From contig NC_010546.1 of NCBI RefSeq assembly GCF_000017845.1, positions 3,900,001 through 3,932,000 of the forward strand: 32,000 bases of DNA, written 5' to 3'. The translations under genes were made by a program, and so were the position numbers. The notes under the pieces are model-generated. The model saw nothing but the letters and a program-made list of their open reading frames with translations, was not told the origin of the DNA and ran no database searches. The stretch's first letter is position 1. Every line of letters starts with the position of its first letter. Positions 21,229-32,000 of this stretch are shown piece after piece. The stretch comes from Crocosphaera subtropica ATCC 51142. GTDB lineage: Bacteria; Cyanobacteriota; Cyanobacteriia; Cyanobacteriales; Microcystaceae.

Positions 21229-21302
21229 GGACGTATAGCTCAGTTGGTTAGAGTACATCGTTGACATCGATGGGGTCACTGGTTCGAGTCCAGTTACGTC
21301 CA
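21229..21302 (+). tRNA. tRNA-Val (anticodon GAC)
   Basis: Cloverleaf read by eye. Acceptor stem GGACGTA (21229-21235) pairs with TACGTCC (21295-21301), with discriminator A at 21302. D-loop is AGCTCAGTTGGTTAGAG. Anticodon stem CATCG/CGATG has loop TTGACAT (anticodon GAC at 21263-21265). T-arm is GGTTCGAGTCC. CCA is not encoded. Confidence 0.95.
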
Positions 21303-21394: not shown

Positions 21395-21433
21395 GCTTAT
21401 TACTGAAGCTAATCCTAGATCATGGTAAAAAAT

Positions 21434-21610
21434 CTTTCAATCCATCTCATTAACCAAAATAGATTGTGACAGTACAATGACAGGGTTTTGATTCCAGATT
21501 CTTACTTTCAATCCATCTCATTAACCAAAATAGATTGTGACGATGGAAAATATACCTCAAACAAGCATTACCACTTTCAATCCATCTCATTAACCAAAAT
21601 AGATTGTGAC
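21434..21610 (-). CRISPR. CRISPR array, 3 repeats / 2 spacers, type V-K repeat
   Basis: Three identical 37-nt repeats at 21434-21470, 21505-21541 and 21574-21610. The minus-strand repeat is GTCACAATCTATTTTGGTTAATGAGATGGATTGAAAG, ending in the V-K-typical TTGAAAG. Spacers are 34 nt (21471-21504) and 32 nt (21542-21573). Confidence 0.9.
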
Positions 21611-21924
21611 GACAGAAGCCCAAAAACCTTATGTATTAGGTCTTTTGCTGACTATTTGCGCTGGATGAAACTCTAAAGTTCATTTCAGCTACAGTCTTTA
21701 AACAAAATAAAGACTGAGAAGTGCTACAACCTATATCTAACAACGGGTTCAAGCTTTGCGCTAGACAACTAGAGAAAAAGAGTTGCTTTTACACGCCTCA
21801 AACTAAGATTAAGCAAGGATTTCATCTTGGTCTAGAATGACTCAGTAAAGATTACAGCAACACACCTGCGCCCTTGCAGAATCAAACATTTTGAGAGCGA
21901 ACTCTAAAATGAGTTAATCTTATA

Positions 21925-22349: not shown

Positions 22350-24188
22350 TTAAGCAGATAAACGCGACTGGTAAGCTTTGAAAGCTAATTCCGCAGCTTT
22401 TTGTAGCGTAGTTCCCTGTAGTGGTTGTTGGCTTTCTTCAACAACTATTCCTAATTTAGAAGCCTGTGCTTGAATGTTGTCAATTAATCTGCCGTAACTC
22501 TACTGGTGGACTTGTATACGATATTTCTTGGCATATTCTGCTTGTGCTTCAATACAATTGGGGATTTTAGCTTCAGCTTTAGTTTGGATTTCACTTTGAA
22601 TCGCTTCTCTTATATCCTTTAGTTTAGGAACAACAATACTTCCTGCTTGATATTCTTGAGCTATTGATATGATTGCTTTAGCCAATAAACGGTCAATATG
22701 TTGACCTAATTCAGAATCACCAAACTGGTTAAAAGCCTCTTTTTGCTGTGCCACATTTCTTTGATGAGACTGAAGCTGTTTTTGTCTCCGTTGACGGTTA
22801 AGTAAGGGATAATTTTTTCCAAGCAGTTGTTTAATGTTTCGGTAAGTTAACACTTTTCTGGTCATTCCATCAATAACGGCAATAGTAGCAGGTTTTTTGA
22901 GTTCCATCGAAACACCAACTAGAATATTAGATTTTCCTTGATATAAAGGTTGACTGGGGCGAGGAAAGGGATTTTCAAGTCTATCTAAGGTTGATTGTTT
23001 TCGCTTAATAAATGCTTGTTGATTTTTGGTTAAATCCCCCTTTTCGTTCATAGAAGTAAGAACTTTGGCAATTTCTTCTGCCTTTTCCTGTTTGACTTCT
23101 TCTGTCCTTTCTTGTGTCCATAAACGAGTATCTAGGGTACATTGTAGGGTTAAGCGATGAACATTCCAAGGTTGACTTTTTCCAGTCTCTTCTTGCCAGA
23201 GAATGCGTCCAGAACGTAGAGTAAATAAGGCACTAGAATGTTGATTTTTACTAGATTTTTTTATTTGTTGATCTTCGTAAAAACGTTGAAACCATTTAAG
23301 TTGTCGGTTGCCACAATAAATTTCAAATTTTAAGTCACTTATTCCATTAAACTGAACACAAAGACGACCTTTTTCATTTTTTGACCAAGTTAAATCTTCG
23401 TTAGTTTCGTAGTTGATAGGAAAAGGAATTGATGAGGATTTTGTTAGTAAATTATCTTGCCATGATCTCGCTTCTTCAATATTTTCAGGATCAGTACAAC
23501 AAGCAATCTTTAATGTTTCTAACCAATTCTCATTAGTTACATCTCGACCTTGAGGTAAACGACTATTAATTTGTTCTTGTAGTCGTTTAAGCATGATTTC
23601 TACTTTACGGCGACGTTTAGCAAATTTCTTAGTATCTTCTGGTTTTTGAGGAAGTTGACAGCGATTTTTAAGTAAGTATTTTAAGGCTGTTCGAGTTAGA
23701 ATATCTTGTTCATTTCTATAGTCTTGAAAGAGAGTATTAAATAAACGTTCTGTTCCTTCATAAGATTGAAGGATTTCAGTAGCTTTCTGGCGAATTGTTT
23801 CTAAATCTGTTTGACCGTCTTTGATTAATTGATGATCACTTTTTAAGACTTCTAACCAGCGTCTTTTTCGATCAAGTTTTCGCTGTAGTCGTTGTTGAAG
23901 TTTAAGCCAAGATTTGAAGATATATTTTACTAAATTAATGCCAGAAGTATAAAACCGTGCAGGTTGTCCTAAAAAACGGGGATCTTTCTTTAATTCATTA
24001 CCTAATTGTTCGATAACCTTTACTTTTAGTCTTCCTCACTGTTTCCACTTTTCAAAGTCGGGGTGTTGTGCCACTTTTTGCAGTAATTCGTTGATAAATG
24101 GCGTGTTTAAGTCTGTCATTAGTCGCCAAAGGGTGTGACGGATGGGTTCTTTAGCAACGAGACGACATTGAATGGTGATTTGACTCAT
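22350..24188 (-). pseudogene. cas12k: cas12k (612 codons) interrupted by two in-frame stop codons
   Basis: ATG at 24188 (MSQITIQCRLVAKEPIRHTLWRLMTDLNTPFINELLQKVAQHPDFEKWKQ) is followed by TGA at 24038-24036. The same frame continues without shift through the track ORF 23594-22500, which ends in TAG at 22502-22500 (...YRIQVHQ*). It then runs on in frame (SYGRLIDNIQAQASKLGIVVEE...SRLSA) to TAA at 22352-22350. Strongly collinear with the ShCas12k sequence as I recall it. The RuvC-I position reads GVSMELKKPATIAVID, with no GxDxG aspartate. Confidence 0.9.
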
Positions 24189-24256: not shown

Positions 24257-24685
24257 ATGGGAGAAATTTTTTTTACCTCTAAGGATGCTGCTAAAATTAC
24301 GGGGTGTACTCTGCGCCAGTTACAGTATTGGCGGGAAAAAGGGGTTATTGTCCCGATGGTGAGTGCAACGGGAACGGGGAGAAGCGTTTATTATTCTCGT
24401 TCTGAGTTGGTGGAGTTGGCAGTAATGGTAAATTTGCTGTCAGTGGGGTTAACTTTTGAGTCTGCTTCTGGAGTGTTGCAGCAGTTAAGGGAAATTGAGC
24501 CGAATTTTGCTGAGGAGAAAAGTCAACGGCGTTTAATGTTGGTTTTTGACACTTCTGAGGGAATGCTGAGGTTAAAGGATTTTGAGCGAGAGAGTGCGAT
24601 CGCTTTTCTAGATCAAGGTTTCCCTGTTATTCCTGTGTGGGTAGATGAAATTTATCAGAAATTAGATGCTCAGTTGCTAAATTAA
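24257..24685 (+). CDS. cvkR: MerR-type HTH transcriptional regulator (CvkR-like, Cas V-K repressor)
   Basis: 142 aa. The N-terminal FTSKDAAKITGCTLRQLQYWREKGVIVP is a MerR-family HTH. It is divergently transcribed from cas12k, the position reported for CvkR in V-K CASTs. Confidence 0.75.
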   Translation: MGEIFFTSKDAAKITGCTLRQLQYWREKGVIVPMVSATGTGRSVYYSRSELVELAVMVNLLSVGLTFESASGVLQQLREIEPNFAEEKSQRRLMLVFDTSEGMLRLKDFERESAIAFLDQGFPVIPVWVDEIYQKLDAQLLN

Positions 24686-24773
24686 ACCTAAAAGGATTAT
24701 GATAAACAATACATAAATACTAACTAAATTAAAGACAAGTTTTTTACATAAGGATAAAATTATCAATTTAACT

Positions 24774-25841
24774 ATGCAACTTATTCAAACTAGACCGAAA
24801 AAGTCAAGTAGGACGACAACAAAAGCATGGCTCAAAACTCTGACCTTAGCTTGTTCCTATGCTGGATTATCGGGGAAAAAGTCGCCTTGGGATTTAGCTG
24901 ACTTAACTTTACAAGTACAAACAAGATGGCAAAATGATTCTAGATATAATTTAAAAGAACTATCTAATGCTTGTAATATTTCTGAATCACGATTACGTTT
25001 GTTAGCAAGAACAGCAAAATTTTATCCTCCTCAAAAACGCTTTCAACAGCTTAGTATTACTCATCATATTGAGGCAATGCGAAAGGCTCCCGATAAGGCT
25101 TATTATTGGCTCAATCAAGCATTAGAAAAAAAATGGAGTGGTAGAGAGATACGTTTAGCTATTTCGGGAGATGGCGATCCTAAAAAATTTTCATGGTTAC
25201 GATGTGGAACATTTTGGTATTTTTCTCATTGCGATCCTAGATTTGGAATTAAATATCCTGGCCGTATTCCAGGGCAAATACCAGCTAATTTAATACACTA
25301 TTTTACTGAACCTAATGATTTAGTTGTAGATTTAATGGCAGGAGGTGGCTCAACTTTAGATGCGGCTAAGTTTTTGGATAGAAAGTGTTTAGGTTATGAC
25401 TTAGTTTCTGTTCGTCCTGATATTTTAATTAATGATGCTCTTGTCGGTATTCCAAAAGAAGCTTACAATGCAAAATTAATTTTTTTAGATCCTCCTTATG
25501 GTGCGATCGCTAAAAATTTATATAGCAAACATCCTCATTGTTTATCGCAAATGAATGAAAAGGAATTTGTTAAAGCTTTAGTTACTATTAGTGAATATTG
25601 TGGTCAAGCTTTGGTATCTGATGGATACTTAGCAATTTTATTACAAAATGTCTATGACTGGGAAAGCGATACAGTATTTAAAATCATCCAAAGTTTTTTT
25701 GATAATAATTGGAAGCTTGTTCGTAGAATTCAAGCTCCTATTTCTAATCAACAAATTTCATCTAGTGTTATGAAATGGGCTAGAGAAAATCGCAAAATGA
25801 TCAATACAGATCGTGATTTGTTAATTTTTCAAATGATTTAA
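24774..25841 (+). CDS. DNA methyltransferase (N6-adenine/N4-cytosine type) with N-terminal HTH/ParB-like extension
   Basis: SAM motif I is VVDLMAGGGSTLDAA and catalytic motif IV is IFLDPPYG. The N-terminal about 130 aa (LSITHHIEAMRKAP...WSGREIRLAI) resembles DNA-binding extensions of phage/plasmid methylases. No adjacent restriction endonuclease. Confidence 0.8.
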   Translation: MQLIQTRPKKSSRTTTKAWLKTLTLACSYAGLSGKKSPWDLADLTLQVQTRWQNDSRYNLKELSNACNISESRLRLLARTAKFYPPQKRFQQLSITHHIEAMRKAPDKAYYWLNQALEKKWSGREIRLAISGDGDPKKFSWLRCGTFWYFSHCDPRFGIKYPGRIPGQIPANLIHYFTEPNDLVVDLMAGGGSTLDAAKFLDRKCLGYDLVSVRPDILINDALVGIPKEAYNAKLIFLDPPYGAIAKNLYSKHPHCLSQMNEKEFVKALVTISEYCGQALVSDGYLAILLQNVYDWESDTVFKIIQSFFDNNWKLVRRIQAPISNQQISSSVMKWARENRKMINTDRDLLIFQMI

Positions 25842-25857
25842 GCAGGACAAGTATTTT

Positions 25858-27432
25858 ATGAATAACCAAAAATTTAATGGTGAATCACTGTATGTGTTAC
25901 CTGATTCTGAGAAAGGAGATAAAAGCCTTAAGATTTGTATCGATTTCGATGCAACTTCTGAACAACCAAAATTTAAACGCAACGATTATGTTTTAATTTC
26001 TCAATCAGAACAACATCAGTGGGTCGGACAGATTGCAGATGTAGAAAGAATTATTTGTCCAATGGGACAATATTCAGATAACACCATCGAGTATCTTAGA
26101 AGACAAGTTTTAGCTCCCGATACAGTTCGTCCGCTTCGGGTTGTTAGATTGTTTGAAGTTCGGATTATTGGTCAATATATTGATGATGAATTGGATGTAC
26201 CTCTAAACAACATTTTGCCAGGAGCTTTAGTCAGTAAATTAGATGAAAAAAGAATTCGTAATTTAATTAATATTCCTCAAATCAAAACTTATTCAGATAA
26301 GTCTCAAAATGTTGTTGGTATTATTCAAAATGCTGAAAACATACCATTAACAATAGATCGTTTAATCATTAGAGATCATATTGGTGTAGGGGGTGCATCA
26401 GGACGAGGAAAGTCAAATTTGAACGAGAATCTAGTGGCGATCGCACAACAAGAAGGATGCTGTATTATTCAGCATGATGCTAAACCTGATTTTAGATACA
26501 TTGAAAAAGCTAATACAGACTCTCATCCTGCTATTCAAGCAAACTGGGAAAAATTTAAAGATTATGGTCTAAAACCTAGAGGAGCAAAAGATGTATTTAG
26601 AATTGCGATCGCTAATCATTTGCCACCTGATGACGTTAAAGTGGACATGATATTAGGGTTTAATGCTTCTGACTTAAATCCTGAATTACTGGCTCAACTA
26701 TTATCTCCTGGTACAGATCAAGCTTCTATTAATGCTCAAGATAATCTAGTCAAAGCAATTTATGGATTAAGGAGAAGAGATTACACACTAAATGACATCG
26801 TGGCAGAAGTTCAAAGGCGAAGGGCTGACGATGAAACTGCTCAAAATAATTATCAAGCTGCTGATCTGATACATCCAATGACTGTTGACTCTATTTTAAG
26901 AAAAATCAATAGCAATCGTCAAAGATTAGATTGGTTAGATACGGTAGGGAACTCAGTGAATAGAGGAGACATTAATAAAAGTAAGCACTTGGCCAGTAAC
27001 AAAAATCCTCAAAAAGTACAAAGATTTACTCCAGAACACATTTTTAAATCAGGAAGGATTATTATGATTGATTATCATAACATTTCTAAAGACGATGAAA
27101 ACTCTTATGCCATTATTTTGGAATATTTGCTGCGACAAGCTCATGATTATGTTTTGAATTCCGATCTAAATATTGTCGAAATGATTGATGAAGCTCATCG
27201 AGTATTTAATAATACATCTCGTCGAGCAAGTGCCTTAGTAAAATCTTTTACAAAATTTGCCCGTGAAGGTCGTGTAAAAGGTCACTGGATGATTGTTAGC
27301 ACTCAGTTATTTAGTGATATCGATCCAGAGGTTAGAGAAAACTTAAATACCAGATTTGTGTTACAACAAAATACAAGAGACGCAGCCAAGATTGCTACAG
27401 AAAATATGGGAAGTGATTTTATTGATACAGTA
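25858..27432 (+). pseudogene. HerA/FtsK-like ATPase, 5' part (525 codons) interrupted by IS
   Basis: Walker A is GVGGASGRGKSN and Walker B is IVEMIDEAHRVF. The N-terminal barrel-like segment reads DYVLISQSEQHQWVGQIADVE. The reading frame leaves the gene at the IS boundary (27433). The track ORF end DISKNP* is IS-derived. Confidence 0.65.
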
Positions 27433-28629
27433 GACATCTCCAAGAATCCATAACCCAGTTACAGCAATGAAAACAGGCAGATTAAACTTGAAGTCAAAAT
27501 TAGCCTTCAGAACGAATTAATAAGGGGTTGAAGGAATTAACTCTAATTTGGACATAAAACTATGGCTCATTATAACGTCAATTACCTCTCCAGATTGGGA
27601 GGATTCTATTATTTTCAAAATCAAGGAACTAATTCTCAACCGAACTAATCCACAAACGGTTAACAAAACCGATTTATATCGACTCTTATGTAAGCGAAAT
27701 CTTTCTTGAACTACTTTAAATACTTTGACAACTCGAATTAAATGCTCAACAAAAATCCGATTAGATGATAAAGCTTTATTTTCTTTTATTTGAGCTTCAG
27801 TTAATTCTCTTTTCTTAGTTTTTTTATGCGGAGTGATAATTTGAGTCTCTCCAATGTAGGCTTTATCAGCACTAAAAGTTTGGTTTATCTTGAATTTATT
27901 TAAAGTTTGCCGACAGATGTTAATGTCACTTGTCGGCCCAGGTTTTCCAATTACTACATCAATAATATCTTCAGCTTTTGGCAAGACAACGAATTGACTT
28001 TTTAAAGTATGTCTTTTCTGCTTACCCTGTCTCTTGGTGCGCGTTCCCTAGGCGATTACGAATCGCCGGGGTCGCACCGCAATAATATTTTTTTTGTTCT
28101 TGATAATCTGAAGGTCTTTCAATAGCCTGTTCTGCGCTGTCTACAATCAATTCATAATCAGTTAACATTTCAAGAACTATTTCTTTTTCTTCTTGAAACT
28201 TTTTTATTTGTTCTAATAAACTTGGTGGTAACTCTCCTTCAAAAAGTGTTTGCCAATAAGTAAAAATATTATGAGCCGTTGACTCACTTACTTGAAAAAG
28301 TAGTCCTAAGAGTTGAAAACTTATATTATGTCTTAAATAAACTAACGTTAGAACAATTTGTTCTTCTTCTGCTAATAAAGATGGACTTCCCGCACCAGGT
28401 TGATTAATTCTAATTTTTGTTTTTTCGTTCTCTTCTTTTTTTTTCTGATGAAGAAGCTTCCCTAGAGCAATCAATTGTTCCAATTGATTGTCATCAATTC
28501 CTAATAATCTTTTGGTTTGTTTAGGATATTTTTTTAGATAGCTCCAAGTGTAAGTTTCCATTCTTTTTTGAACTAATTATTCATTTTATTATACTATATT
28601 TCTTGATTTTATTAAATTATGGAGATGTC
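27433..28629 (-). mobile_element. IS5-family (DDE_Tnp_4 / Harbinger-like) insertion sequence, 1197 bp, TA target duplication
   Basis: Terminal inverted repeat GACATCTCCA at 27433-27442 and its complement at 28620-28629. It is flanked by TA (27431-27432 and 28630-28631). Removing the IS plus one TA restores an in-frame HerA-like ORF. Confidence 0.8.
27517..28561 (-). pseudogene. IS5-family transposase split into two ORFs by a 50-nt insertion
   Basis: The N-terminal ORF (28561-28022) carries an HTH_Tnp_4-like segment (LTLVYLRHNISFQLLGLLFQVSESTAHNIF). The C-terminal part (frame open from about 28024: GKQKRHTLKSQFVVLPKAEDIIDVVIGKPGPTSDI...ADKAYIG...NRIFVEHLIRVVKVFK) is the DDE domain. The usually contiguous YxGKxKRHT motif is separated by GC-rich sequence at 28026-28075. 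Confidence 0.7.
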
Positions 28630-28631
28630 TA

Positions 28632-28865
28632 GTGATCAGTCTTGGAAAGGGAAAATGTCTAGTTAAAACCAATGAATCTCAAGCTGTACTTCAAGTAGCA
28701 ATTGCACCTAGTCCCTTTGAATTAATGAGGGATGATAATCGTAATAAAAAAGGAGTTTATCAAGCTCCTCAACATAGGACCCAAAATAAAAATAACTCTA
28801 AAACAAAAAAAGCTGATAGTGATTTGGAAGATAAGGAAGATAAGTATGATTATAGTGCTTTTTAA
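28632..28865 (+). pseudogene. HerA/FtsK-like ATPase, 3' part (77 codons)
   Basis: Continues the 25858 frame once the IS is removed (..DFIDTV|VISLGKGKCLVKTNESQAVLQVAIAPSPFEL...). Not an independent gene. Confidence 0.6.
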
Positions 28866-28908
28866 AGAAATTTCAATTTCAAAATATTTCAAAAATAGGA
28901 GTTAAAAC

Positions 28909-29988
28909 ATGGATTTTTCTGAAATGCTCAAAGATAGCAAACAAGTCACCTATGATGACTTTGTGATAGATAGTGGAGGTATTGCTGATGATATTATTGA
29001 AATGTTTACAAATCCTTTAGCCATAGAAGTGCAAGAAATCTATAAAAAAGACATTTTAGAATTAAAAAATATAAAAACTGATAAAGGAACAGTGTTTGGA
29101 CTTAGAAAACTGAATTTTGGCGATATATCCCAAGCACCTGAAGTTTTATCTGGTCAAGTTGCAGCAGTTGATGGAACTTTTGCTTTACCTCGTCAAGATT
29201 ACTCAACAGGATCAGCCGTTTGTGTCGCAGTTGGTAGTGCGACAATGACTAGAACACTACAGGATAGTTTACATTATTGGTCTAGTACCAAAGCACTGAA
29301 AAATACTCAAGATATTGATGATTTTTTAGACCTTAGACAAGAACATCTTTATAAGCCTAATAATAGTGCATTTATGCGTTACTTTGAAGCTGCTCATGCT
29401 TTAAAAATCGATGAAAAATTTATATTTTTTGATGGACTTTTATGTGATGAATGGTTAGCTAATACAAAAGAAGGGGCTGCATTATATCGAGAAATGCTAG
29501 AACATCCAAATAAAAAGTTTATAGGTGTAATTAAGAGTTGTAAAAAGAATTTAATGTTTTCACAGTATGCCCGTGCTTGTCCATCAGGTTCTATATTATT
29601 AATAGAAACTTTATATGAACATATAAACAGAAGAGAATCAGAAACTAGATTTTCTCTTCACTCTAATAAACAAGAAGTACGATCCTTTTGGAATGAGTTA
29701 TCTCCTCGCATTATTAGGGGAGTTTTTAAACCTTATAAACGAGCATTTGGTTTTGAAGTTTTAGAAGATCATTTAGATGACATGATCCGTCTTTTGGCTG
29801 CAGACGCACACATGAGTCAGGAAGGACATGAAATTCCTTATTTATTAAATTTAGTTGATGGTGAAATTAGGAGAATGTTTAAACGCCATAAACTCTTGAA
29901 TGATATTGCACTAAAAATGAATCAAACTTCTGACTCTATTTATCAAGAAGAATGGGACGAACACGCATTTCGTCCACAACAAGCATAA
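28909..29988 (+). CDS. Hypothetical protein, possibly NurA-like nuclease
   Basis: 359 aa, starting 43 nt after the HerA-like gene on the same strand. The segment GQVAAVDGTFALP resembles the N-terminal catalytic (a)iDGS motif of NurA domains. HerA-NurA gene pairing is well known. The assignment is tentative. Confidence 0.4.
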   Translation: MDFSEMLKDSKQVTYDDFVIDSGGIADDIIEMFTNPLAIEVQEIYKKDILELKNIKTDKGTVFGLRKLNFGDISQAPEVLSGQVAAVDGTFALPRQDYSTGSAVCVAVGSATMTRTLQDSLHYWSSTKALKNTQDIDDFLDLRQEHLYKPNNSAFMRYFEAAHALKIDEKFIFFDGLLCDEWLANTKEGAALYREMLEHPNKKFIGVIKSCKKNLMFSQYARACPSGSILLIETLYEHINRRESETRFSLHSNKQEVRSFWNELSPRIIRGVFKPYKRAFGFEVLEDHLDDMIRLLAADAHMSQEGHEIPYLLNLVDGEIRRMFKRHKLLNDIALKMNQTSDSIYQEEWDEHAFRPQQA

Positions 29989-30000
29989 AATAAAATTAAA

Positions 30001-30420
30001 TCATTTTAAATGCTTAATAGGTTGATGAGTTAGTTTTTTCAATTCCTCTGCTACTTCAACACGATGACAGCGATGATAATCCATTTCTGCACACAACAGT
30101 AAAATAGTTTTAGATTTTGCTTTTTGGGCAATATCTTGTAAAACTTGATCAGCTTTTTCAGGATCAGGAGAAACCCAATGACTTGTACCTGAAACATTTC
30201 CTAATGTAGTTTCTGATAAATATTCTATTCCTTGTTCATGACAAAATTTTTCAATTTGATCACCGTACCATTTACGACTCCAAGCACGAGGTTTTTCTCG
30301 AACATCAATCAGAAAATCAATTTTAAACTCTTTTATATAGTTTAACAAAGTATCATAATTAGAACGATTGCCATAACCAAACGTCAAGATAAAAGATTGA
30401 TGAATAGATGTATTGTTCAT
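30001..30420 (-). CDS. DUF488 family protein
   Basis: 139 aa. FGYGNRS..LL....I..LIDVREKPRAWSRK...L...C...GI.Y....LGN follows the DUF488 pattern as I recall it. It ends with CAEMDYHRCHR (Cys/His cluster). Confidence 0.65.
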   Translation of the reverse strand: MNNTSIHQSFILTFGYGNRSNYDTLLNYIKEFKIDFLIDVREKPRAWSRKWYGDQIEKFCHEQGIEYLSETTLGNVSGTSHWVSPDPEKADQVLQDIAQKAKSKTILLLCAEMDYHRCHRVEVAEELKKLTHQPIKHLK

Positions 30421-30424
30421 AATT

Positions 30425-31219
30425 TTAAAATAACTCCATTTGTTTTATTTTTACTAGAGGAGGATAAAATAAACCGATAATCATAAAAGAATTTTTATGA
30501 TTCTTAAGATTTCCAACAATAAAATATAAATCTTTGTTTTGTAAAAAATTATCTTCTAGTTTTTGTCTAACTTTTTCTAAAGCATCTTGTTCAGCTTCTA
30601 ATCCTGAGAATTTAGAGTGATTACGACACTTACGATAAAGTTCCATAATTTCCCAATCACTAATCGAATATTTATGAGGTATATTATCTTGGTCAGTAAA
30701 TTGATAAACAAATTGATAAGGTATTTTTTCCAAGTCTATATTAGGTTCAAATAAATCTAACTGATTTAAAATATTCTGTTTCTTTTGATCCCATTCTCTG
30801 GTTGTTTGTTTGAAAAAATATTTTTCAACTGATTTAGGTTTAATAATTCCTAATGATTTTCCCTCTTCTTGAATTTCTTTAATCGATCTAAATTGTAATG
30901 GTAAAACGAATGATTTTCGCTCCTCCCAATTGTTACGAGTATCTATTTTTCTAATAATTTGCAAAGAATCATCATCGATCCGAAAACTTTCTGCACGATA
31001 ATCTTTATCATTTTTTACAATTTTTGCACTAATAATTGCCCATCTCGGATAACGTTTATCAAAATCTAAATAACGATATCTAATCGGATAAATTCTAACC
31101 CACTGCAGGGGATGTTCTTCGTCATCTAGCAATATCCCTGCTGTACAAACTGTTTCTTTATATTTAGTGCTAATTGACGGATAAGTTTTAGTAGCAATTA
31201 AAATCTTTCTTGTTTCCAT
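30425..31219 (-). CDS. Hypothetical protein (264 aa), no recognisable domain
   Basis: Long ORF starting 21 nt downstream of the tniQ stop and ending 4 nt before the DUF488 gene, all on the same strand. Coding-like composition. Confidence 0.6.
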   Translation of the reverse strand: METRKILIATKTYPSISTKYKETVCTAGILLDDEEHPLQWVRIYPIRYRYLDFDKRYPRWAIISAKIVKNDKDYRAESFRIDDDSLQIIRKIDTRNNWEERKSFVLPLQFRSIKEIQEEGKSLGIIKPKSVEKYFFKQTTREWDQKKQNILNQLDLFEPNIDLEKIPYQFVYQFTDQDNIPHKYSISDWEIMELYRKCRNHSKFSGLEAEQDALEKVRQKLEDNFLQNKDLYFIVGNLKNHKNSFMIIGLFYPPLVKIKQMELF

Positions 31220-31240
31220 AAAGTTTACATAAATATTGGC

Positions 31241-31750
31241 TTAATATTTAATTATTTGTTGCTTTTCCATCATCTCCCCAAACGATAAAAAACACCGATG
31301 ACACCAACCCTCAACCCAAAGTGCAGGAAACTGAAACCTTGCCCCACAATTAGGGCATTCCGACAACAACGTTAACCCATGCTCTGAACAAAACTGAGTC
31401 GTCTTCAACTGCCATTCAATCTTATGACAAGCTTCTTCCTCATAACAAGCCCCACATAAGCGAATCGGTTGATGCTTCATTCCCACACCTTTTGGCGGAA
31501 ACATACTCCATAACCTTTCCACTTCTACCCGTACCACATCAGATAAAGCCGTTAACTCCTCCTCAGTGGGTGCAGGAATAAAACGAAACTTCTCCCATCT
31601 GGCGATCGCACCCCCTAACCCCGTTATTTTACCCATCATCGTCACTGTTAACTCATTTTCTCGCCGAAACCGTCCTAAAAAATGACTGATACTTTCCCCT
31701 GCTAACGGTTGCACCAAAAACCACCAAGGTTGAATCTCTCGACTTTCCAT
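31241..31750 (-). CDS. tniQ: TniQ (small V-K CAST type)
   Basis: 169 aa. GESISHFLGRFRRENELT, the AIARWEKFRF block and IRLCGACYEEEACHKIEWQ...CPNCGARFQFPALW..GWCHRC are collinear with ShCAST TniQ as I recall it. The ATG overlaps the tnsC stop (TAATG at 31752-31748). Confidence 0.9.
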   Translation of the reverse strand: MESREIQPWWFLVQPLAGESISHFLGRFRRENELTVTMMGKITGLGGAIARWEKFRFIPAPTEEELTALSDVVRVEVERLWSMFPPKGVGMKHQPIRLCGACYEEEACHKIEWQLKTTQFCSEHGLTLLSECPNCGARFQFPALWVEGWCHRCFLSFGEMMEKQQIIKY

Positions 31751-32000
31751 TATCGATACTCCTCTGTCACTTCCTTCAAAGTTTCTAAATCAATCTTCTG
31801 TAACCCCTTTTTTAACGCTCTAATAGCAGATTCCCGTAGAATCATATCTAATAAGCCAATATAACCCCCCGTTGCTTGTCCGAGAATCTTTAACATCCGT
31901 TTACTACTTAAATTAGACGCTACAGGCAACTTCAACACCTGACGTTCCCAAATATCCACCGTTTGACTAAACTCATCTCCTGCTAACTTACCAAAGCGAT
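31750..32000 (-). CDS. tnsC: TnsC (AAA+ regulator of V-K CAST), 3' end only
   Basis: The frame is open to the window edge (..FGKLAGDEFSQTVDIWERQVLKLPVASNLSSKRMLKILGQATGGYIGLLDMILRESAIRALKKGLQKIDLETLKEVTEEYR). This matches the C-terminus of ShCAST TnsC as I recall it. The ATG at 31959 in the ORF track is internal. Confidence 0.9.
   Translation of the reverse strand, partial: RFGKLAGDEFSQTVDIWERQVLKLPVASNLSSKRMLKILGQATGGYIGLLDMILRESAIRALKKGLQKIDLETLKEVTEEYR

Follow-up and report, generated by a model that had tools for sequence, protein, structure and literature searches.

A methylase, HerA and NurA-like gene trio in the cargo of a type V-K CRISPR-associated transposon of Crocosphaera subtropica: a candidate defence module

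Structure of the locus

The chromosome of Crocosphaera subtropica ATCC 51142 contains a self-contained trio of genes, cce_3783-3788, encoding a predicted DNA methyltransferase (methylase), an ATPase of the HerA type and a NurA-like protein, carried as cargo of a type V-K CRISPR-associated transposon (CAST). The window analysed here is a stretch of 32,000 nucleotides (NC_010546.1, 3,900,001 to 3,932,000), and all coordinates are given within it. The genes are all on the plus strand in the order methylase, HerA, NurA and follow the regulatory gene cvkR. They occupy four open reading frames (ORFs), 24774-25841 (355 aa), 25858-27453 (531 aa), 28632-28865 (77 aa) and 28909-29988 (359 aa), the second and third being parts of a single herA gene. 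The intergenic gaps are 16 nt (25841 to 25858) and 43 nt (28865 to 28909). An earlier note on this DNA had described three co-directional genes with these gaps, and they are present as described; the motifs that it listed, Walker A and B, DPPY and VDGT, are all read directly from the translations. A scan for promoters and terminators was uninformative (40 promoter-like sites against 31.9 +/- 6.2 expected).

The first gene (cce_3783, 24774-25841, plus strand) encodes a candidate DNA amino-methyltransferase of 355 aa, an exact match of ACB53131.1. It belongs to the Pfam family N6_N4_Mtase (PF01555; 2.7e-12, 47.6 bits against the cut-off of 26.7) and contains the motifs FLDPPYG and DLMAGGGST. Motif I (DLMAGGGST, around residue 186) precedes motif IV (DPPY, residues 239-242), and positions D186, G190, G192 and D239-P-P-Y242 are invariant in 54-60 methylase sequences. 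In a profile search against the PDB, the family matches solved beta-class DNA methylases in two pieces whose order is swapped: residues 224-297 of the query correspond to residues 31-101 of the 2zie chain, and residues 162-230 to residues 214-282. This shows that the catalytic domain is a circularly permuted PF01555 domain relative to the solved beta-class N4C/N6A enzymes.

The N-terminal part of the methylase, approximately residues 13-131, is a helical domain resembling helix-turn-helix (HTH) proteins, which agrees with the DNA-binding extension proposed earlier. Residues 36-131 match the NCBIfam LmbU-like family at 1.8e-10, below the cut-off of that family, and a Pfam search with the N-terminal domains of the methylases yielded nothing significant. 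In the AlphaFold2 model (predicted local distance difference test, pLDDT, 89.4), seven helices form a domain at the N-terminus, and the Rossmann domain is complete. The best Foldseek matches of this model are generic class I O-methyltransferases and Trm11, as could be expected from the ordinary Rossmann order of the protein, and are of no help in predicting the target. Thus the probable DNA-methylase function of cce_3783 is assigned from sequence profiles. No paper on the methylome of ATCC 51142 was found in the literature search.

The second gene encodes an ATPase with the Walker A motif GASGRGKSN and the Walker B motif IDEAH. The protein rebuilt from the two ORFs (602 aa, see below) matches Pfam DUF87 (PF01935) with 30.4 bits against the cut-off of 23.2 (5.3e-7) and the PADLOC model of HerA with 8.5e-12. 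The patterns GGxSGxGKSN and DEAHR are invariant in the family (alignment A6), and the family profile matches the HerA structures of S. solfataricus (4d2i, 2e-15) and T. kodakarensis (9x1l, 3.2e-11). By these profile matches the ATPase is a true HerA, and the HerA-type assignment of the earlier note stands.

The third gene (cce_3788, 28909-29988, plus strand) encodes a predicted NurA-family nuclease of 359 aa, listed in UniProt as 'NurA domain-containing protein' (B1WNV7). A search yielded 190 homologues, down to E = 2.7e-225. The protein contains the NurA-like motif AAVDGT and stays below the gathering cut-off of Pfam NurA (PF09376; 16.0 bits against 21, E = 0.009). At the level of the family, 32 of the 55 members match Pfam NurA at E <= 0.01 (best 9.2e-7), and several have precomputed PF09376 matches. 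Positions D88 (VDGT), E160, D175 (FDG), D299, H307-E308-I-P310 and D317 are invariant in the 55 sequences (alignment A1). A search of PDB sequences with the NurA profile produced noise alone (globins, E > 0.2), and thus a fold comparison was needed. The best Foldseek match of the AlphaFold2 model (pLDDT 86.5) in the PDB is S. solfataricus NurA (2ygk, 3.9e-7, template modelling scores 0.47/0.52); further matches are EndoV, P. furiosus NurA, the T. kodakarensis HerA-NurA complex, TM1739 and PIWI. The identity to the solved NurA structures is about 9-12%. The NurA assignment is made because the relatives match NurA, the acidic and histidine columns are invariant, and the model is closest to S. 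solfataricus NurA; judging by this model, the protein has the RNase H-like NurA fold. Thus the suggested similarity to NurA holds for the fold, whereas the score stays below the Pfam cut-off. No PD-(D/E)XK, HNH or HsdR/Res domains were detected in the trio, in agreement with the view that it contains no classical restriction endonuclease.

Disruption of herA by an insertion sequence

The herA gene is split by an insertion sequence (IS) of 1197 bp (27433-28629, minus strand). This element has the features of the IS5 (IS427-like) family: ORFs encoding a DDE_Tnp_4 transposase domain and an HTH domain, short inverted repeats, and a small TA-type duplication of the target. The termini are perfect 10-bp inverted repeats, GACATCTCCA / TGGAGATGTC, and the dinucleotide TA is duplicated at 27431-27432 and 28630-28631. 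Both ORFs are on the minus strand, orfA at 28022-28561 (179 aa, HTH_Tnp_4 1.2e-18) and orfB at 27517-27984 (155 aa, DDE_Tnp_4 5.8e-20). That the transposase is split into orfA and orfB may reflect programmed frameshifting, known from IS427-type IS5 elements, or may be a defect. The window contains one copy of the element.

The 5' part of herA (25858-27432, plus strand) comprises codons 1-525, and its reading frame continues for six codons of the IS, ending at 27453. The 3' part (28632-28865, plus strand) comprises 77 codons and encodes the conserved C-terminal segment LGKGKCLVK...APSPFELMRDDN. When positions 27433-28631 are removed, codon 525 (GTA) meets GTG at 28632 in frame, which restores 602 codons, exactly as the earlier note had predicted for an ATPase split by an IS5-family element. 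An intact orthologue of 618 aa, encoded by a Microcystis-type contig (L007) where the IS site is empty, shares 83% identity with the rebuilt HerA. The alignment is continuous over the junction, which reads DFIDTVVISLGKGK in the rebuilt protein and DFIDS-VLSLGKGK in the orthologue, one extra codon being the sole difference there. An alternative boundary of the IS that leaves 601 codons (D-T-V-I-S) and gives a gapless alignment with the orthologue was rejected, as TA alone is duplicated at both junctions.

The IS should inactivate HerA, since the 77 codons that it cuts off encode the family-invariant segment APSPFELMRxDN (positions A549, P550, S551, P552, L555, R557 and D559 in alignment A6). 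Thus the window copy has intact methylase and NurA genes and a broken gene of the motor.

Several other cyanobacterial copies of the module are decayed as well. Locus L028 has lost herA and retains intact methylase and nurA genes. Locus L013 has lost herA, its methylase is truncated at the N-terminus, and its NurA is intact. In locus L040, an internal deletion fuses herA and nurA, and loci L045 and L049 contain remnants. The loss of HerA with retention of intact NurA in three decayed copies (the window, L028 and L013) points to the motor as the probable costly component of the module.

Distribution and gene order

The NurA clade is small: 148 clusters were found among 1.84 billion representatives at E <= 0.001. 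The clade is spread over Cyanobacteria, Poribacteria, Armatimonadota, Gemmatimonadota, Planctomycetota and Chloroflexota. A HerA gene was detected beside the NurA-like gene at about 32 of the 35 informative genome loci and, in addition, at loci L001-L010. Co-conservation of the three genes in other genomes had been named beforehand as a test that could refute the idea, and the observed linkage exceeds it. HerA, NurA and methylase genes occur together in at least five gene orders and with methylases of at least four lineages, in cyanobacteria, Poribacteria, other phyla and three viral contigs.

Type A, with the order HerA-methylase-NurA, was found at approximately 17 genome loci and at L001-L006, in Cyanobacteria, Poribacteria, Armatimonadota, Gemmatimonadota and Chloroflexota. 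Type A', the pair HerA-NurA with no methylase within 8 kb, was found at 17 loci, mostly from Poribacteria and Planctomycetota. Type B, methylase-HerA-NurA, is represented by the window and Microcystis. Type C, methylase-NurA2-HerA2, is common, and occurs in Nostocales, Microcystis, Leptolyngbya and others. Type D, NurA-HerA-methylase, was found in one viral contig (L060). The proteins of type A systems diverge in step (Spearman correlations 0.96 and 0.84, n = 14). In three methylases of type A (L017, L025 and L048) the catalytic DPPY is replaced by DPSY (alignment A2).

Type C systems (L050-L055; for example, L052 7001-10916) encode a methylase of 356 aa, NurA2 of 371-376 aa and HerA2 of 555-560 aa. 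NurA2 proteins are unrelated to the window NurA clade at the BLAST level and have the motifs in the same order. This system, widespread in cyanobacteria, also appears to be unnamed.

The window methylase is 57-72% identical to type C methylases and approximately 21-30% identical to those of type A. In contrast, the window HerA and NurA are 36-46% identical to type A proteins and have no BLAST similarity to those of type C. Since the methylase resembles type C and HerA-NurA resemble type A, the window trio is, by protein similarity, a natural chimera, with the methylase from one cyanobacterial system and HerA-NurA from another.

In three viral contigs from IMG/VR (L058 4229-8785, L059 5197-10069 and L060 7515-11505), the HerA-NurA pair lies directly beside a methylase gene. 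The three methylases differ: that of L058 is a canonical beta PF01555 enzyme with HTH_23, that of L059 is of the Dam D12 family, and that of L060 is permuted. Their neighbours encode DnaB, AAA_24, DUF2800 PD-(D/E)XK and tail-lysin proteins. That methylases of at least four lineages have been recruited to the side of HerA-NurA speaks for a functional coupling of the methylase with this pair, and the three genes very probably form a genuine, co-inherited module. The 'orphan' methylase of the earlier note is thus a DNA methyltransferase as stated, and is not a free-standing one, since it has HerA-NurA as its dedicated partner.

Identities between phyla are 64-71%, and the flanking genes are unrelated from locus to locus. 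Both facts indicate horizontal transfer of the module. A tblastn search against 72,556 plasmids found no match for NurA or the methylase, and the HerA matches were distant alone.

Some loci have additional or missing partners. In Poribacteria L027 (4077-10582) and L032 (5220-11881), a methylase-less HerA-NurA pair is inserted into an ABC-transporter operon, between the genes of a Bmp/PnrA-like substrate-binding protein and the ABC ATPase; HerA of L027 has 927 aa and two P-loop ATPase regions. In two trios of Poribacteria, a gene of an AlkB-like 2OG-Fe(II) oxygenase lies directly upstream of herA (L005 4122-4829, L006 1185-2144). AlkB enzymes remove methyl lesions from DNA, hence the possible interest of this gene. 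In the distant relatives L061 (5332-8349) and L063 (2927-5213), the order is NurA, a protein of approximately 175 aa, HerA, so that the methylase is replaced; a Pfam search with the replacing protein yielded nothing significant. The L061 variant adjoins CHAT protease and nSTAND/HD-CE genes, which are typical of conflict systems. The Rhizobium plasmid pRlX5 (L056 2689-8919) contains an operon of a 387-aa protein, NurA, HerA and a HATPase_c_3 protein, adjoining the gene of the Rep3 initiator. A haloarchaeal plasmid of Natribaculum contains a NurA-HerA pair with no partner at all. No PF01555 methylase was found with these distant plasmid pairs of Rhizobium and Natribaculum.

Transposon context

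The gene order in the window is tRNA-Val, CRISPR array, cas12k, the divergent cvkR gene, the cargo (24765-31227), tniQ and tnsC. The tRNA-Val gene (21229-21302, plus strand) and a CRISPR mini-array with three repeats (21433-21617) lie in the left end region of the CAST. The cas12k gene (22500-24188, minus strand) matches NCBIfam V_Cas12k with 3.3e-176 over profile residues 223-585. It is readable at full length except for one in-frame stop at about codon 51 (frame MSQITIQ...DFEKWKQ*GRLK, continuing to ...GRLKVK), which means that the gene is a pseudogene or that the stop is an error of sequencing. The left border of the cargo is formed by the gene of a cvkR-like MerR regulator (cce_3782, 24257-24685, plus strand; Pfam MerR_1 9.5e-17), and the right border by tniQ (cce_3791, TniQ family protein, 31241-31750, minus strand; Pfam TniQ 8.5e-9) together with the 3' end of tnsC (the two spanning 31241-32000, minus strand). 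The divergent orientation of cvkR and cas12k is the arrangement described for type V-K CASTs, whose cargo sits between cas12k/cvkR and tniQ (PMC9938897). Compared with this architecture, the window has the canonical cyanobacterial layout, and the trio lies at the cargo position that had been proposed for it. The stop in cas12k together with the IS in herA suggests that this CAST is decaying.

The whole cargo consists of the trio and a PDC-M19 candidate defence pair (30001-31219, minus strand). The latter comprises a DUF488 gene (30001-30420; Pfam DUF488 3.2e-15) and a gene of a 264-aa partner (30425-31219); the PADLOC scores are 1.8e-74 for PDC-M19B and 6.7e-13 for PDC-M19A. Only the block of these five genes, window positions 24765-31227, is homologous to a contig of Microcystis wesenbergii (L011), with 81-84% nucleotide identity. 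Its limits lie shortly before the start of the methylase gene and at the distal end of the PDC-M19B gene. In M. wesenbergii, the DUF488 gene and the gene of the 264-aa protein also follow the trio (L011 9177-10407), whereas the flanks are housekeeping genes in a non-CAST context. As the homology ends exactly at 24765 and 31227 amid non-CAST flanks, the five genes moved as one block. In loci L007 and L009, a 59-aa remnant of DUF488 is all that remains of the PDC-M19 pair.

Functional interpretation

The reading that we favour is that the trio is a methylation-linked, restriction-like defence system, inactivated in the window copy; we give it a probability of roughly 45%. By homology to the archaeal complexes, for which this activity is established, a HerA hexamer and NurA would form a translocase-nuclease that threads and digests double-stranded DNA. 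The methylase would mark the resident DNA using its own N-terminal DNA-binding domain, or serve as the DNA-recognition subunit. Unmarked incoming DNA of phages, plasmids or competitors would then be loaded and destroyed. In such a system the role of the restriction enzyme would be filled by a processive motor-nuclease instead of a classical endonuclease, and the simplest role for the methylase would be epigenetic self-marking that spares the resident DNA.

A role in defence is favoured by the recurrent linkage with a methylase, the in-step divergence of the type A proteins, the mobility and turnover of the module, a CAST cargo made up of the trio and one further defence candidate, and the CHAT/nSTAND neighbours of a distant NurA-HerA variant. 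Several published facts also speak for it. Restriction-modification systems are frequent cargo of CASTs (PMC9938897), HerA and NurA have been listed as putative CRISPR auxiliary genes (PMC10910872), and HerA with other effectors forms proven anti-phage defence systems (PMC11291478, PMC11472057). Defence-type genes were seen near the module at other loci, namely Hhe, IetA, a type I methyltransferase, several PDC candidates and patatin effectors, in a scan of neighbours made without a background control.

A number of observations weigh against a defence function. Apart from the uncontrolled nature of the neighbour scan, a search within 8 kb of HerA-NurA revealed none of the four methylase lineages at 17 of approximately 35 informative loci, and these 17 lie among housekeeping or ABC-transporter genes; the pair is thus viable with no linked methylase. 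The viral copies are situated among genes of replication and recombination (DnaB, AAA_24, the DUF2800 PD-(D/E)XK nuclease). The HerA family profile is nearer to the archaeal repair HerA than to the HerA proteins of defence systems, the NCBIfam HerA_antiphage score is 20.9 bits against the cut-off of 800, and PADLOC has no model for the NurA-like protein. Some methylases of the HerA-methylase-NurA type carry DPSY and not DPPY; these may be weakened or inactive enzymes kept as DNA-binding subunits. Finally, the NurA-TdtA-methylase operon of the Thermus element ICEth1 serves DNA donation, and the effects of its methylase are minor (PMC7767461).

The last observation is the starting point of an alternative, namely that the trio serves mobile elements in DNA processing or transfer: HerA-NurA would pump or resect the DNA of the element or of the host for its transfer, replication or recombination, as in ICEth1 or in replication modules of phages, and the methylase would shield the DNA of the element from host restriction. 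Indeed, the ICEth1 operon combines the same three domain families, and its NurA and TdtA are required for transjugation while the methylase is of minor importance. The viral contig L060 has the ICEth1 order NurA-HerA-methylase next to DnaB, L058 and L059 lie among DnaB, AAA_24 and DUF2800 genes, the nearest outgroups of the methylase are ParB-methylase fusions of phages, and the window trio itself is carried by a transposon. However, most copies are bare chromosomal cassettes of three genes, and genes for integrases, relaxases, replication or packaging are missing from their vicinity. In the ICEth1 model the cuts come from a type IIG restriction enzyme, which is absent here, and transposition of a CAST has no need of these functions. 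We regard a transfer function as rather unlikely.

Another explanation, similarly improbable in our estimate, is that HerA-NurA acts alone, for example by attacking the free ends of linear DNA that enters the cell, or by being a costly selfish nuclease. The methylase would then be an accessory or a hitch-hiker that takes no part in self/non-self discrimination and functions, for instance, in epigenetic regulation or anti-restriction. The absence of any methylase at half of the loci would agree with this, as would its replacement by the unrelated protein of approximately 175 aa in the distant relatives, the Rhizobium plasmid operon where NurA-HerA is followed by HATPase_c_3 with no PF01555 methylase, the partnerless haloarchaeal plasmid pair, and the near dispensability of the ICEth1 methylase. 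On the other hand, at least four unrelated or permuted methylase lineages lie directly beside HerA-NurA, including all three viral contigs; the methylase co-diverges with its partners; and the methylase of the window came by exchange, as a unit, from a different HerA-NurA system.

Housekeeping DNA repair, with end resection by HerA-NurA as for the Deinococcus or Thermus HepA and with the methylase marking a strand or site, might be suggested by the archaeal repair enzymes that are the closest solved HerA structures, by the best NurA fold match, also archaeal, and by the Poribacteria, where the pair is common among ordinary genes, but it is very improbable, as the family is rare and patchy (the 148 clusters mentioned above), combines high identity across phyla with variable flanks, is often decayed or hit by an IS, and is carried as transposon cargo and by phages, and mre11/rad50 genes were not seen beside it in the neighbourhoods examined.

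Comparison with known systems

No description of the trio was found in the literature searched for NurA or HerA together with defence, methylases or capture systems, and the absence of a NurA-like model from PADLOC points the same way; the trio is not a named system, as had been surmised. It is best filed within two known kinds, the HerA-plus-effector modules and the methylation-linked systems of non-classical restriction.

The archaeal HerA-NurA complex (S. solfataricus, P. furiosus, T. kodakarensis; PDB 4d2i, 2ygk, 3taz, 9x1l-p) is composed of the same two families encoded side by side. It is the source of the mechanism assumed above, a hexameric motor feeding double-stranded DNA to a nuclease with the RNase H fold. 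Unlike it, the trio has no mre11/rad50 partners and has a dedicated methylase, and it is bacterial, mobile, and borne by a CAST and by phages.

The tdtA operon of ICEth1 in Thermus thermophilus contains the Tth111II/TthHB27I enzyme, the NurA-like nuclease TTC1878 (377 aa), TdtA (TTC1879) and the PF01555 methylase TTC1880 of approximately 410 aa (PMC5365140, PMC7767461). It is the sole experimentally studied operon with a NurA-like protein, a HerA/FtsK ATPase and a PF01555 methylase, it also resides on a mobile element, and the likeness is one of domain composition. Proteins or loci of Thermus were absent from the plasmid tblastn matches, from the listed matches of the profile searches and from the genome scan. 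Its order, NurA-ATPase-methylase, is that of the viral contig L060 and differs from the window; it has a type IIG restriction-modification enzyme, which is absent here, and its assigned function is DNA donation ('transjugation').

Sir2-HerA and DUF4297-HerA (PMC11472057, PMC11291478) likewise combine a HerA hexamer with an adjacent effector, and DUF4297 is a nuclease activated in the complex. Identity with these systems was rejected, as the effector of the trio is NurA, a methylase is present, the PADLOC HerA match is partial (8.5e-12), and HerA_antiphage scores 20.9 against 800 bits.

DndFGH and the 'HerA/FtsK capture systems' (PMC10853773, PMC12839542) use a HerA/FtsK translocase that captures the DNA of an invader and passes it to a nuclease, and they contain modification-related domains. 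However, their nucleases are REase, PglZ or others, their architectures are large and multidomain, and the methylase-like domain of DndH is inactive. NurA is not mentioned in the paper on these systems (PMC10853773).

DISARM, BREX and MADS also join a methylase to an ATP-driven motor acting on DNA and to a non-classical effector, with epigenetic self-marking as the proposed logic, but the protein families differ. For viability, BREX and DISARM do not require the methylase in every case, and methylase-less loci would be in line with this. MADS (mad1-8) was rejected, since the matches to mad2 (8.2e-4) and mad8 (1.3e-10) are weak and there are three genes, not eight. Classical restriction-modification of types I-III was rejected as well, because the trio has no recognised endonuclease subunit and the methylase is not obligatory (absent from 17 of approximately 35 loci).

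Conclusions

A broader and more tentative suggestion is that methylase-coupled HerA-NurA represents an unnamed recurrent class of epigenetic immunity, built on a processive hexameric translocase-nuclease with a freely exchangeable self-marking methylase (drawn from at least four lineages, in at least five gene orders). Both bacteria, in part through CAST cargo, and phages would destroy unmarked DNA with it. The DNA donation of Thermus might then be a side effect or derivative of immunity.

A comparative set for experiments is already at hand: orthologues that are intact and come in three gene orders, versions that naturally lack the methylase, and natural chimeras. For the biology of CASTs, the locus is an example of a type V-K element whose entire cargo consists of two candidate defence modules. 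If the defence reading is correct, the trio would be a restriction-like system derived from the archaeal-type HerA-NurA resection machine and would link a DNA-repair complex to immunity. It would also explain the recurrence of HerA and NurA near CRISPR loci and on mobile elements, and would allow the Thermus ICEth1 operon to be reinterpreted.

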